Numbered from the stretch's first letter, positions 34,750 through 38,438 are shown. The stretch: DNA of 52,475 bases from Bacilli bacterium (GCA_035392025.1 DAOPMC010000003.1:1-52475), one strand, 5' to 3'. Numbers and translations are program-made. The notes: generated by a model from the sequence alone, not told the origin.

Positions 34750-35793
34750 TTAAACATTATCAAAAAACTTAATACTATCTCTTATCTTATTTTGTAAAGT
34801 GTAGCTATTAGCGTGTTTAACATGACCTATCCAAGAATTAAATGATAAAATAAAATCTTTTCTTGAAAGTTTACCATTATCATATAAATCATTCCACTTG
34901 CTAACATTCTTTTTTATCTTATTCTTACTACCCTTTCTAATTAATCGATGAGTACTCCAAATTCGATAACCACAAAAGTCTGCTCCAAACTCATTTGGAT
35001 AATATCTCGATTTACTATTTAATGTTAATTTTAAAACCTCGTTTAAAAATCTCTTTATAATTAAATATAGTTCACTTGCCTCTTCCTTATTTTTAACTAA
35101 TAAAATAAAGTCATCCATATATCTTACATAGAATTTAATCCTCAATTTTTGTTTGACAAACTTATCCAATTTATCTAAATAGATGTTAGCAAAAAACTGT
35201 GATGTATAATTTCCAATAGGAATACCAACAGTTTCATTATCAGAATCAATTAATAATTTAGTAAACCTCAAGAGTTTTTTATCATTTATATGTTCTCCCA
35301 TTATTTCCAATAATACTTCGTGATCAATGCTATAAAAGAATTTCTTAATATCCATTTTTAAAACATAATAAGCTTTACCATAATTTCTTTGAGCCATTCT
35401 CATATATTTTTGCATACAATCAACAGCCTTATGAGTTCCTCTTCCGCATATACAAGCATAAGTATCTGTGATAAATTTAGGAACAATATATTTTTTTATA
35501 AATTCTTCAACATACCATTGGTGGACTACTCGATCAACGTATGGTAGTGCTTTAATAACTCGTTCTTTTGGCTCATATACAGTAAATGATCTATAAGCAC
35601 CCATTTTATATCTATTATTCCTTATATTTTCGACTAGATTTACGATATTAGATTCTAGACTTAAATCAAAGTTTAAAACCTCATATCTATTAAGTTTACC
35701 CTGTTTTGCTCTTTCATGAGCTAGAATCATTTTTTCAAATGTTAAGTTTTCAGCAAAACAATTTTTTATTTTGTTAGGCACTCGTTTATCCAC
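34750..35793 (-). CDS. DGR reverse transcriptase
   Basis: RT motifs including GIPIGNYTSQ (the DGR-specific I-G-x-x-x-S-Q) and YMDD. Sits beside an Avd-like gene and a TR/VR pair. Confidence 0.9.
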   Translation of the reverse strand: MDKRVPNKIKNCFAENLTFEKMILAHERAKQGKLNRYEVLNFDLSLESNIVNLVENIRNNRYKMGAYRSFTVYEPKERVIKALPYVDRVVHQWYVEEFIKKYIVPKFITDTYACICGRGTHKAVDCMQKYMRMAQRNYGKAYYVLKMDIKKFFYSIDHEVLLEIMGEHINDKKLLRFTKLLIDSDNETVGIPIGNYTSQFFANIYLDKLDKFVKQKLRIKFYVRYMDDFILLVKNKEEASELYLIIKRFLNEVLKLTLNSKSRYYPNEFGADFCGYRIWSTHRLIRKGSKNKIKKNVSKWNDLYDNGKLSRKDFILSFNSWIGHVKHANSYTLQNKIRDSIKFFDNV

Positions 35794-36143
35794 CCACCTA
35801 ACATATTACAAATATTAGTTATCTTGTAACTCCAAGCACGATAATTTCTAGCATTTATGTATTTGTTTTTAATTGCTATTCTAACATATACCTTTAAACA
35901 TGATAATTTTACATCAACATCATTCAAATACTTTATTTTTGTATTTTTACTATATTGCTTTTTTGCCCATAATAATAACTCAAATGCTTCAAACATACAT
36001 TTTTTTGTTTCACTCACTAAAGCAAACTTTTCAGAACTTGGATATTTTTTGAGTAAATTATAAACATACAACATCATTTCCTGATACTTTCTAATAATAA
36101 GCATTTCTTCTTCTTTTGGCTTTAAAGTCTTTACTTCTTCCAT
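35766..36143 (-). CDS. avd: DGR accessory variability determinant (Avd, four-helix-bundle protein)
   Basis: 125-aa basic all-helical ORF between TR and RT, overlapping the RT start. Confidence 0.75.
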   Translation of the reverse strand: MEEVKTLKPKEEEMLIIRKYQEMMLYVYNLLKKYPSSEKFALVSETKKCMFEAFELLLWAKKQYSKNTKIKYLNDVDVKLSCLKVYVRIAIKNKYINARNYRAWSYKITNICNMLGGWINECLTK

Positions 36144-36404
36144 TTCATCACCATCATTATATATTTTTAAAAAGAAAGAGATAATGTCAACCCATTATCC
36201 CCAAATACATAATACCTAATATTCGCAAATACACTACTAACTAGAATATTACTGTTCATGTGTTAATCTACATAAGTAGAAAGGAATTAAACTTCTTTGA
36301 TATTTTATTTGATATGGTTAATTTTACTCATATCATAATTTTCTAAATGAATAACCGAATGATAAAAATCATCTCTTTATGTTTTCATTATATCAGAGTG
36401 CTCA

Positions 36405-36525
36405 CAAGACAGGACGGAACCCGTTGTTGCTGTTCGGACCACCGTTCGTGTTGTTGAAATTGAAGGCACCAGCATTGGAGCCATTGTTCCAATTGCCACC
36501 GCGAATGAACCACGGATTGCTAGTG
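36405..36525 (-). repeat. DGR template repeat (TR)
   Basis: 121 nt, 106/121 identical to 36768..36888. All 15 differences are at A (coding strand) in this copy. Reads as an AAC/AAT-rich frame. Confidence 0.9.
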
Positions 36526-36740
36526 ACGGAGTTACAGTTTAATCCCTATATTTCACATAGGTTGCTTGAAATACCATTTTTCATTGCCATAACCCCCGTC
36601 AAGCATTGATGGCGATGACCTAAAGTTCATCACCATCTTTCCCTCTACCATTAGTTTAGAGATGAATATTTTGTGTCAGTTCGTTGAATTTTGTTCTTCT
36701 TTTTTTCAAAAGGGAAAAAGGTGAAAAGAACAATTTCACA

Positions 36741-36758
36741 GCAGGACTAAAGCCCTGC
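36741..36758 (-). other. GC hairpin (GCAGG-N8-CCTGC) straddling the target stop codon, 10 nt 3' of the VR
   Basis: Read directly. No counterpart next to the TR. Confidence 0.4.
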
Positions 36759-38438
36759 ATTCACTATCAAGACAGGACGGAACCCGTTGTTGCTGCGCGG
36801 ACCACCGCCCGTGATGTGGAAAAGGAAGGCACCAGCAGTGGAGCCAAAGTCCCAATAGCCACCGCGAACGAACCACGGAGTGCTAGTGTTAGGCATATTG
36901 GTATAATCACCAAACCATCCTAATCCTGTTGCTATTGCATTGCTACTTGTTTCCCATACAGCATCACCTTTTTTATTCACTGTTAATAAATAGTTATTAG
37001 CGTTATCATCAGTTGTATTTTTTGTATATATATCTTTATATTTACTAACTGCATTTATGATTGATGCTCCTTGTCCTGCTAAATTACCATTCGCATTATC
37101 AACATAGGCTGATACTCTCTCCCATGCACTACCAGATAGATCATATATTCCATAAATGTTTCCTGTTGTACTTGCTTTTACTCCACCTGTTGATTCGTAT
37201 GTATTCCTACAGCCATTATAACCACCTTCGGTAGCACTATTAGCTGCACATCCTGTTATATAATTCTGATTATTATTTATATATATTTCTTCAGTATTTT
37301 TACCATAGGTTGATTTACTTAAATATGCTACTGCTCCCCATTCCATGTTTTTCATTAAATGAGTATCTATATTATTAGTATCAGTAGTATAAGTCCCATT
37401 TGCTTGTAATCCACTAGCAGTAGTCCAACCATACGCACTACTTGCTTCCATATTTCTTGATGCTGTAAAGGCATTACCAACATTCATACATCGCCATGAT
37501 GCTACATTTGGTAATACTTGAATTGTTTTTGTTGATACATTATCTCCTGCTATCGGACACGAACTATCACTCGTATATCCATTGGCTACTCCTTCTACTG
37601 CTGTTGCTTCAAATTTTGCTACCCATATTCCTGTTACTTCGGTTCCTGTTCCAAAAGTAAATCCAGAGTGATTTGTCCATGTATTATTTGAAGCATTAGC
37701 GGTTGTATCAGTACTAATGTTGCCAATTGTAGCACTATTCCAATTATCATCTGTTCCTTTTGAAAATTGAACTTCTATCGTTCCTGTGGTATTTACATGA
37801 TGATTTGATGTTATTTTATAAACATATCTTGGTATCCACACCCACATACTTCCATCAGCTGTTTTGGCATTAGCCCATTTTTTATCTGTTGTATTATAAT
37901 TATACCAATCATCATCACTAGCAGTTGTTGTTACCCAAGCTGATCCATTCCACTTAATTGGTGTCATTCCTGCTACTAATTTTGGTTCATTAACCCCTTT
38001 GTTAGAATCATATCCTAATTGATTAATCACAGTTGAATAATTACTACTATCAGTAACACTCATGCTAGTATATGAACCATAAGCTACTAAGCCATCCCAT
38101 TTGTTTTTGCCCCTAACTACAATGTAAGGTTTTCCATTCAAAGTAATTACTTTTATTGTTTCGTAATTATCGTTAGACTGTCCTAATATGTCTGTAATAT
38201 TAGTTTCATTAATGCTTGTTACATCCAACGACTCATTTGTTATCATTTTATAATCCATATCTTTCAATAACATTCTAGCATCACTTTCAAAAGCACCTCT
38301 TGTAGAACTGCTTATTATCCCTAATATGCCGGGAACAGCTATAGCAAGAATTATTGCTAAAATAACTATTACAGCTAATAATTCTATTAATGTAAATCCA
38401 GATTTAGACTTCCAATTAACTCCCATTCCATTCACCAC
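36747..38438 (-). CDS. DGR target protein: type IV prepilin-like N-terminus, central domain and C-terminal CLec/FGE-sulfatase-like fold bearing the VR
   Basis: KSG/FTLIELLAVIVILAIILAIAVPG is a class III (prepilin) signal. The C-terminal half has FGE/CLec-type motifs (IWVAKFEA, YGIYDLSGSAWERV, RGGYW..G). The VR is at the extreme C-terminus. Confidence 0.85.
   Translation of the reverse strand: MVNGMGVNWKSKSGFTLIELLAVIVILAIILAIAVPGILGIISSSTRGAFESDARMLLKDMDYKMITNESLDVTSINETNITDILGQSNDNYETIKVITLNGKPYIVVRGKNKWDGLVAYGSYTSMSVTDSSNYSTVINQLGYDSNKGVNEPKLVAGMTPIKWNGSAWVTTTASDDDWYNYNTTDKKWANAKTADGSMWVWIPRYVYKITSNHHVNTTGTIEVQFSKGTDDNWNSATIGNISTDTTANASNNTWTNHSGFTFGTGTEVTGIWVAKFEATAVEGVANGYTSDSSCPIAGDNVSTKTIQVLPNVASWRCMNVGNAFTASRNMEASSAYGWTTASGLQANGTYTTDTNNIDTHLMKNMEWGAVAYLSKSTYGKNTEEIYINNNQNYITGCAANSATEGGYNGCRNTYESTGGVKASTTGNIYGIYDLSGSAWERVSAYVDNANGNLAGQGASIINAVSKYKDIYTKNTTDDNANNYLLTVNKKGDAVWETSSNAIATGLGWFGDYTNMPNTSTPWFVRGGYWDFGSTAGAFLFHITGGGPRSNNGFRPVLIVNAGL
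36768..36888 (-). repeat. DGR variable repeat (VR) within the target gene
   Basis: Encodes TSTPWFVRGGYWDFGSTAGAFLFHITGGGPRSNNGFRPVL near the C-terminus of ORF 36747..38438. Confidence 0.9.

Follow-up and report, generated by a model that had tools for sequence, protein, structure and literature searches.

A diversity-generating retroelement with avd and a MutS-like gene, targeting a type IV prepilin-type protein within a putative integrative conjugative element of a Bacilli bacterium

The cassette, its repeats and its target

In the present study, a stretch of 52,475 nucleotides from a Bacilli bacterium (GCA_035392025.1 DAOPMC010000003.1:1-52475), hereafter the window, was analysed for a diversity-generating retroelement (DGR). 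Along the minus strand of the window lie, in this order, a MutS-like gene (msl), a target gene ending in a variable repeat (VR), a template repeat (TR) with a spacer RNA, avd, and a gene for a reverse transcriptase (RT). The features of the locus are collected in Table 1. The original prediction, made by a model from the sequence alone, had described a complete cassette at 34750-38438; the parts it named were all recovered. The cassette reaches further, to at least 38954, as msl is located upstream of the target gene; besides msl, the prediction did not include the RNA scaffold around the TR, the prepilin N-terminus of the target or the setting in a conjugative element. We regard the locus as very probably an intact DGR with both Avd and Msl, carried as cargo by a conjugative element with a type IV secretion system (T4SS), and its target most likely as an adhesin displayed on the surface or on a pilus.

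The pair of repeats provides the most direct evidence. The TR and VR align over 121 nt without gaps, with 106 identical positions and 15 mismatches, and each of the 15 falls on a TR adenine of the coding (minus) strand, while none of the 92 non-adenine positions differs. The re-alignment reproduced exactly the alignment given in the original prediction, and the mismatches at non-adenine positions that the prediction had named as grounds against itself were not found. The replaced adenines, 15 of the 29 in the TR, were exchanged for C, G and T five times each, and the hypergeometric probability of 15 mismatches all falling on 29 adenine positions is 1.4e-11. Eleven codons are changed within the repeat, as the original prediction had stated, and every change is nonsynonymous; the repeat translations of the prediction were also reproduced. 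In the frame of the target gene, all 29 TR adenines occupy codon position 1 or 2 and none position 3. The codons that carry them are 12 AAY codons together with ACT, ACG, ATT and two AGC, and thus no stop codon can be created by mutagenesis. Up to 17 codons are variable, 12 of them AAY, corresponding to at most about 1e17 possible binding-site variants. The VR is single in the window: when TR adenines were treated as wildcards, all 92 non-adenine positions were matched by the TR and the VR alone, and the next best site matched 40 of 92. The unmutated adenines gather at both ends of the repeat, and the 3' segment of the VR might represent the boundary of homing, by analogy with the initiation of mutagenic homing (IMH) sequence of the Bordetella phage BPP-1. 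The G+C content is 52% in the TR and 60% in the VR, compared with 33.5% in the remaining target gene and 27% in the window.

The proteins encoded next to the repeats are consistent with this result. The RT was best matched in the PDB by the Bordetella phage bRT (8ub7, a chain of 328 aa), with an E value of 3.7e-46 over residues 10-333, compared with 1.6e-17 for a group II intron RT and 2.5e-14 for a retron-type RT. Grouping of the RT with either of the latter classes, the other outcome that the original prediction had held to speak against a DGR, was not observed, and the assignment of the RT to the DGR type is supported by these matches. Both the 347-aa RT with its two motifs and the 125-aa basic open reading frame (ORF) were found as predicted, the latter being Avd according to NF033474, and all four ORFs of the cassette are intact. 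In summary, the earlier call of a DGR was upheld by the adenine-specific TR/VR pair, an Avd match above cutoff, an RT resembling bRT, and a VR at the C-terminus of a C-type-lectin fold of the formylglycine-generating enzyme (FGE) type.

The target combines a pilin module with this lectin-type domain. At its N-terminus, the features of a class III signal peptide were observed: the site reads KSKSG/FTLIE, with G at -1, F at +1, E at +5 and a hydrophobic helix. The prepilin motif scored 32.5 bits with Pfam N_methyl (cutoff 21.2) and 30.3 bits with TIGR02532 (cutoff 16.3); it is the only family match of the target by sequence and the sole motif of its kind in the window, and the PDB sequence matches of the target are pilin N-termini (geopilin, PilE1, PilA). 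An AlphaFold2 model built with 58 homologues (pLDDT 92.6, pTM 0.88) contains a helix at residues 17-67, strands at 92-130 and a large C-terminal domain. When this model was compared with the PDB using Foldseek, the DGR variable protein TaqVP (5vf4) was the top match (E 5e-8; the sequence identity was 15%, and the TM-score for the whole model 0.3-0.46). FGE and PvdO came next, and PilA5 was matched weakly (E 1.5). According to these matches, the VR forms the end of a C-type-lectin fold of the FGE type, as it does in TaqVP and TvpA, and the diversified codons would lie on the ligand-binding face of this domain. Among 57 homologues, the entropy at TR-adenine codons was 3.24 bits, compared with 1.24 bits at other VR codons and a mean of 1.55 bits over the whole protein (Mann-Whitney P 1e-7), indicating that the same positions are diversified across the target family. 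The family comprises more than 6600 homologues, many of which are named pilin, pseudopilin or type II secretion protein in uncultured Bacilli. We consider the target to be most probably an adhesin, displayed at the cell surface or by a type IV filament and carried as cargo between hosts.

Homologues of the target that are 54-66% identical were also observed as single genes in the chromosome, where the surrounding 8-10 kb contain no RT (L001 10001..11626, L169 8001..9695 and L170 8001..9656), and four paralogues are present in one genome of 1.49 Mb (OW818670.1). Such stand-alone genes may be targeted in trans or may be former targets.

Table 1. Positions of the cassette, its RNA and DNA signals, and the genes of the carrier element in the window
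Feature	Position	Strand	Remarks
msl	38517..38954	-	145 aa; MutS domain I only; pI 7.6; Pfam MutS_I 2.8e-11; directly upstream of target
Target (variable protein) gene	36747..38438	-	563 aa; prepilin leader and pilin alpha-1 helix, small beta domain, C-terminal FGE-type C-type-lectin domain ending in VR
Prepilin-type N-terminal cleavage/methylation motif	38337..38411	-	aa 10-34; KSKSG/FTLIELLAVIVILAIILAIAVPG (also given as KSKSG/FTLIELLAVIVILAIILAIAV)
VR	36768..36888	-	aa 518-557 of target
IMH-like 3' segment of VR	36768..36795	-	28 nt equal to TR; 5 unmutated A; G+C-rich 3' end; ends GGGTTCCGTCCTGTCTTG
Hairpin after VR	36741..36758	-	GCAGGGC-TTTA-GTCCTGC; 7 bp; 10 nt past VR, over target stop codon (DNA fold)
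TR-bracketing duplex, 5' strand	36536..36547	-	AGGGATTAAACT; 10 nt upstream of TR
TR	36405..36525	-	29 adenines; 12 AAY codons
Structured spacer RNA downstream of TR	36298..36395	-	closing helix TGATAT 36395..36390 / ATATCA 36303..36298
Candidate Avd-binding hairpin	36373..36358	-	GATGAT-TTTT-ATCATT; in spacer
TR-bracketing duplex, 3' strand	36282..36293	-	AGTTTAATTCCT; within conserved motif AAGAAGTTTAATTCCTTT
Small stem-loop	36268..36279	-	CTAC-TTAT-GTAG, then A-rich ATTAACACA; adjoins duplex
avd	35766..36143	-	125 aa; pI 9.48; NF033474 DivGenRetAVD 88.9 bits (cutoff 80); Pfam bAvd 1.3e-24
DGR reverse transcriptase	34750..35793	-	347 aa; 28-nt overlap with avd; RVT_1 7e-19
RT motifs	IGNYTSQ 35217..35197; YMDD 35121..35110	-	within RT ORF
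Conjugative element	~713..40344		~39.6 kb; splits spoVD-position penicillin-binding protein (PBP) gene
PBP gene halves	N-part 40329..41585; C-part 34..712		join in frame ...AFGQGVSVTPI/QQVTAVSAIVNGG...
Large serine recombinase	692..2419		abuts one junction
SNF2/ArdC-like protein	3609..10157		2182 aa; SNF2 helicase domains; ArdC N-terminal match weak, below cutoff
VirD4	10160..12169		T4SS-DNA_transf 2.4e-61
Weak relaxase candidate	13291..14646		PF03432 E 0.001, below cutoff
M23 peptidase	15468..16328		
VirB4-like ATPase	17086..19620		DUF87 / P-loop_TraG
VirB2-like T4SS pilin	21313..21591		
BspA-type leucine-rich-repeat surface protein	22571..23701		
Small protein	26141..26506		weak DUF4320 match
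Polytopic membrane proteins	27913..28728; 26509..27201		by VirB11/TadA-like ATPase; the former a weak T2SSF match (E 0.13)
VirB11/TadA-like ATPase	28685..29803		
ArpU-like regulator	38926..39336		
Cro/C1 helix-turn-helix protein	39879..40136		

Related loci, RNA scaffold and proposed mechanism

The cassette was compared with 160 related loci, the RTs of which are 40-80% (mostly 52-60%) identical, obtained from metagenome-assembled genomes (MAGs) of uncultured gut Bacilli, Erysipelotrichaceae, 'Tenericutes' and Clostridia and from human, rabbit and mouse gut metagenomes. Among these loci, avd is present in 156 and a recognisable target homologue in 85. When both strands were searched, TR/VR pairs were found in 95 of 167 loci, compared with 41-42 of 167 using a BLAST-based single-strand finder. 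Two layouts were observed: in one, mostly in Bacilli, the order target(VR)-TR-msl-avd-RT is kept on one strand, and in the other, mostly in Clostridia, the target and TR are convergent with msl-avd-RT. The latter layout was noted in the clostridial loci L036, L041, L045, L052, L082, L108 and others (e.g. L108 11756..13414). The clostridial targets begin with KGITL(I/V)ALV(I/V)TII, which is pilin-like and lacks the Glu5 of canonical type IV pilins, and many targets of Bacilli have a plain signal or anchor, GFTLIE being present only in the window and in L022. The neighbours at the three long loci examined are genes for ComEC, EF-Tu/EF-G, PrkC, RlmN, an aminoacyl-tRNA synthetase and RecD2, and the best RT in IMG/VR is 40% identical, compared with 55-60% in cellular MAG contigs. 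These housekeeping neighbours and the distance of the IMG/VR RTs indicate that the DGR clade is cellular and not of phage.

The RNA around the TR is conserved among the relatives as well. The motif AAGAAGTTTAATTCC, the core of which is AGTTTAATTCCT, is common to relatives downstream of the TR, at distances of 59-151 nt, and the 12-bp duplex that brackets the TR is present in 55 of 58 non-redundant loci. In a MAFFT alignment of 32 diverse loci based on sequence alone, 99.2% of the cells of this duplex are paired, and 9 of the 12 pairs show changes on both sides; none of 500 shuffles reached any of the observed measures, and slid registers paired at 35-68%. The closing helix of the spacer also covaries among relatives, where it reads GATACA/TGTATC, CTATGATA/TATCATAG, CTAAAATA/TATTTTAG, CTTTAACACT/AGTGTTAAAG and others. 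At the site of the candidate Avd-binding hairpin, relatives carry a hairpin of 8-9 bp with a loop of the UACG, CAAG or UAAG type. Comparison of the relatives shows that the TR-flanking RNA scaffold is under selection in this clade. The minimum free energy fold of the window includes the 12-bp duplex, the closing helix of the spacer and a small hairpin followed by an A-rich stretch. This layout fits the description of the cPRT Stop element as 'duplex + stem-loop + adenosines', derived from Bordetella cryo-EM and a survey of 278 Avd-containing DGRs (bioRxiv 10.1101/2023.10.23.563531). On the side of the target, many relatives with the same-strand layout have hairpins of unrelated sequence at the same post-VR site, and such hairpins are absent after their TRs. 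The post-VR hairpin of the window is a candidate hairpin or cruciform for target recognition, and may double as a terminator.

The msl gene is a frequent companion of these RTs. Using a hidden Markov model iterated from the window protein, msl homologues were found at 139 of the 160 related loci, in 132 of them immediately upstream of avd-RT. In the window, msl lies upstream of the target and is displaced from this usual site between the spacer and avd, and in the closest relative (L007, RT 80% identical) msl is apparently also not located there. MutS-like (MSL) accessory genes have been reported for 'Architecture D' DGRs, which make up 16 of 372 reference DGRs and include the DGR of a Legionella integrative conjugative element (ICE) (PMC5758913), and Msl has also been described in DGRs of Bacteroides ICEs (bioRxiv 10.1101/2024.11.15.621889). 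Among 121 non-redundant Msl proteins, no exception to the G-x-F-Y of MutS domain I was seen, and the Glu of the Phe-X-Glu mismatch motif of MutS is Ile or Leu in nearly all of them; the window Msl retains Phe-X-Glu (GIFYE) and is one of two copies with the Glu. Deletion of mutS in Bacteroides increases homing 5-10 fold, suggesting that Msl, which has the mismatch-binding domain of MutS but not the ATPase, probably keeps mismatch repair away from the heteroduplex with its many mismatches.

Herein, we propose a sequence of events for the diversification of the target. An RNA spanning at least 36547..36268 would be made, in which the 12-bp duplex brackets the TR and the structured spacer follows, a fold that is supported by the covariation in relatives. 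The RT and Avd would bind this scaffold, and the RT would self-prime from the spacer, copy the TR with misincorporation opposite adenine and halt at the duplex, by analogy with the Bordetella phage. The resulting cDNA would replace the VR, and this step would be guided by the hairpin downstream and by the 3' end of the repeat, which is rich in G+C and carries no change; the heteroduplex would probably be protected by Msl. The outcome would be variation on the binding face of the C-terminal lectin-type domain of a modular type IV pilin-like protein.

The original prediction suggested that the element is or recently was active, and this view is consistent with the intact parts of the cassette and with differing VRs in a related DGR. 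In two gut-metagenome contigs with an RT 56% identical to that of the window (L092 and L093; VR 8569..8718, TR 8916..9065), which come from different metagenomes, the RT DNA is 100% identical and so are the TRs, but the VRs depart from the TR, at 10 positions and at 19 positions. This difference is direct evidence for diversification in nature within the DGR clade.

The carrier element and alternative explanations

The DGR lies inside the element listed in Table 1, near its regulator end. The element is inserted in the dcw cluster, where mraZ, rsmH, ftsL-like and pbpB-like genes are followed by the split PBP gene in the spoVD position. The junctions are near 713..723 and 40345..40355, the break falls in the transpeptidase domain of the PBP, and rejoining of the halves gives TPI/QQV. 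The assignment of the carrier as an ICE is supported by its T4SS genes, its integrase and the PBP gene that can be rejoined in frame; other genes of the element encode DUF3846, SSB and a NikA-like protein. We read the DGR as cargo acquired by this element.

Several further observations were made on the element. The insertion resembles 'skin'-type intervening elements, which excise to restore sporulation genes. The region 26141..29803, with the TadA-like ATPase, the membrane proteins and the DUF4320 protein, may be a Tad-like filament module within the T4SS element. The closest other copy of the ICE, with 92% nucleotide identity, was found in a 43-kb contig (L167 1..14323, Logan SRR29243430) whose first base corresponds to position 34700 of the window, 50 nt beyond the stop codon of the RT; the break of this contig may reflect the TR/VR repeat or a boundary of the cargo.

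Other explanations of the locus were weighed against this reading. That the TR and VR are an ordinary partial gene duplication diverged by chance, next to an unrelated retroelement such as a group II intron or retron, was assigned practically no probability. The top-scoring NCBIfam match of the RT is indeed a group II RT/maturase at 110.9 bits; this score is, however, far below the cutoff of 300, and bRT is much closer to the window RT than group II or retron RTs are. Moreover, Rfam at the gathering threshold gave no match in the window and hence no curated DGR, group II or retron RNA, and Avd, msl and the RNA scaffold occur together in about 140-156 of the 160 related loci. Together with an adenine specificity that has a P of about 1e-11, the re-alignment and the PDB comparison of the RT refute this explanation. 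A prophage as the carrier, with a phage receptor-binding protein as the target, also appears very improbable. Most DGRs in gut datasets are phage-borne according to the literature, and an ArpU-family regulator (phrog_248) and the Cro/C1 protein flank the cassette; yet no capsid, portal, terminase or tail matches were detected in the element, and the prophage was rejected as the carrier for the lack of these virion proteins. The element does encode VirD4, VirB4 and a VirB2-like pilin, together with a protein resembling a relaxase. The nearest IMG/VR RTs are also more distant than those of cellular MAG contigs, as described above, and megablast of the 4-kb region gave no match in phage or plasmid collections.

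Some results weigh against an active DGR that diversifies a pilin-like adhesin on a conjugative element. Only one VR haplotype is available, the three assemblies with the element being 100% identical over 13-21 kb and probably from the same sample; the candidate Avd-binding hairpin of the window is shorter than in relatives, with 6 bp and a UUUU loop; and no promoter of the TR RNA stood out, as sites resembling promoters were not more common (58) than in shuffles (48.5 +/- 6.2). For the target, Pfam FGE-sulfatase gave no match by sequence, and the window contains no prepilin peptidase and no second pilin with the type IV motif. For the carrier, a distant ICE relative has no DGR, and tblastn with the transfer genes of the element gave no match in any of the 160 related DGR loci; location of the relatives in the same ICE was rejected on this result and on their housekeeping neighbours. 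The missing transfer genes and the ICE relative without a DGR suggest that the link to conjugation may be incidental. The single VR haplotype and the short hairpin, together with the location of msl away from its usual spot, would suit a recently inactivated relic, in which the VR differences record past homing and diversification has ended. We consider such a relic unlikely: the ORFs are all of full length with the catalytic YMDD and the IGNYTSQ kept, none of the covarying RNA elements is damaged in the window, the absence of changes at the 92 non-adenine positions argues against long neutral decay, and the same msl-less spacing between TR and avd is present in L007, which has its own adenine-specific TR/VR pair. 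Similarly improbable is a diversified pilin that works as a tip or minor pilin of the conjugation machinery and chooses recipients, in which case the DGR would correspond in function to the shufflon that varies PilV in R64. The target carries a canonical type IV prepilin motif and is oriented as the transfer genes are, the cassette lies wholly inside the element, and about 7 kb downstream are the VirB11/TadA-like ATPase and two polytopic membrane proteins, one of them weakly T2SSF-like. However, relatives of the DGR and of its target lie in chromosomes, where their neighbours are housekeeping genes and not transfer genes. A VirB2-like T4SS pilin is already encoded by the element, neither a prepilin peptidase nor a major pilin was found in it, the distant ICE relative does without a DGR, and in Bacteroides ICEs the DGR-diversified pilus tip was dispensable for transfer (bioRxiv 10.1101/2024.11.15.621889). 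In a further form of this idea, which we hold to be quite doubtful, a conjugative element of the Gram-positive type recruited the DGR so as to make hypervariable a type IV pilin-like adhesin that serves it in forming mating pairs or choosing recipients, with Msl as a dedicated factor against mismatch repair. If true, the IncI1 shufflon would have a counterpart based on a retroelement; to our knowledge, neither such a use of a DGR in mating nor a role of Msl against mismatch repair has been demonstrated for any DGR. In other words, a direct role of the target in mating is possible but less likely than that of an adhesin carried as cargo, which is the reading retained here.

Significance and comparison with known systems

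Tens of thousands of DGRs are known. In a recent survey, variable proteins encoded by Bacillota ICEs or cells mostly resembled phage receptor-binding proteins, and pilin-type VR domains have been described only as 'scarcely represented'. The DGR described herein is real and apparently functional, and its setting is of moderate interest with regard to the type IV prepilin-type target, the carriage by an ICE and the insertion in a spoVD-position gene. The window thus offers a compact and apparently complete example of a DGR in which a type IV prepilin-type protein is hypervariable and the cassette travels on a conjugative element. In addition, the 160 related loci provide a comparative set for Msl and the TR-flanking RNA scaffold in a cellular clade of gut DGRs, and this set could guide experiments on the function of Msl and on the bounding of cDNA synthesis.

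Modular type IV pilins, such as PilB and PilC of Streptococcus sanguinis, consist of a pilin module and a large C-terminal functional domain. The modules of PilB and PilC are vWA or lectin domains and are not hypermutated. The window target resembles such pilins in its leader, alpha-1 helix, small beta sheet and large grafted C-terminal domain. The FGE-subclass variable proteins TaqVP (5vf4) and those of the TvpA type are the best structural match of its C-terminal domain, and in them as in the target the VR forms the end of the fold; unlike them, the window protein also has the pilin module, and the N-terminal part of its domain is large and rich in inserts.

With the BPP-1 DGR (mtd-avd-TR-brt), the cassette shares adenine-specific transfer from TR to VR, an Avd and an RT of the same family, a VR at the C-terminus of a protein with a C-type-lectin fold, and, as a candidate target-side signal, a hairpin after the VR. 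The pairing of RNA upstream and downstream of the TR into a cPRT Stop duplex is also consistent with BPP-1 (bioRxiv 10.1101/2023.10.23.563531). In contrast to BPP-1, where the TR lies between avd and the RT gene, the TR of the window is upstream of avd and msl is an additional gene; moreover, the BPP-1 target is the tip of a tail fibre and its carrier a phage, whereas the target here is a cellular pilin-like protein with an FGE-type C-type-lectin domain and the carrier is conjugative.

The DGRs of Bacteroides ICEs (Bfr, Bth and Bun; bioRxiv 10.1101/2024.11.15.621889) are similar in having Avd and Msl, in being borne by an ICE and in varying a binding domain at the C-terminus of a pilus-type protein. 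Their targets are type V, FimA-like tip pilins at the end of a stalk/anchor operon, whereas the window target is a type IV prepilin that is not at the end of such an operon. The host in the present study is also different, being of the Bacillota type with 27% G+C, and its ICE has a serine recombinase and VirB4/VirD4/VirB11-like genes of the Gram-positive type. The Legionella pneumophila ICE DGR (LdtA) and other 'Architecture D' DGRs (PMC5758913) likewise combine location in an ICE, avd with a small MutS-like gene, and a C-type-lectin target. LdtA is, however, a lipoprotein exported by the twin-arginine translocation (TAT) pathway, unlike the pilin-like target of the window, and msl lies beside avd in 132 of the loci related to the window, where msl is instead upstream of the target.

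In the shufflon of R64 (IncI1), which acts on the PilV adhesin of the thin pilus, a mobile conjugative element likewise varies a type IV pilin-like protein at its C-terminus. The analogy concerns the outcome only, as the shufflon exchanges a few cassettes through site-specific DNA inversion, whereas the DGR of the window would use reverse transcription.

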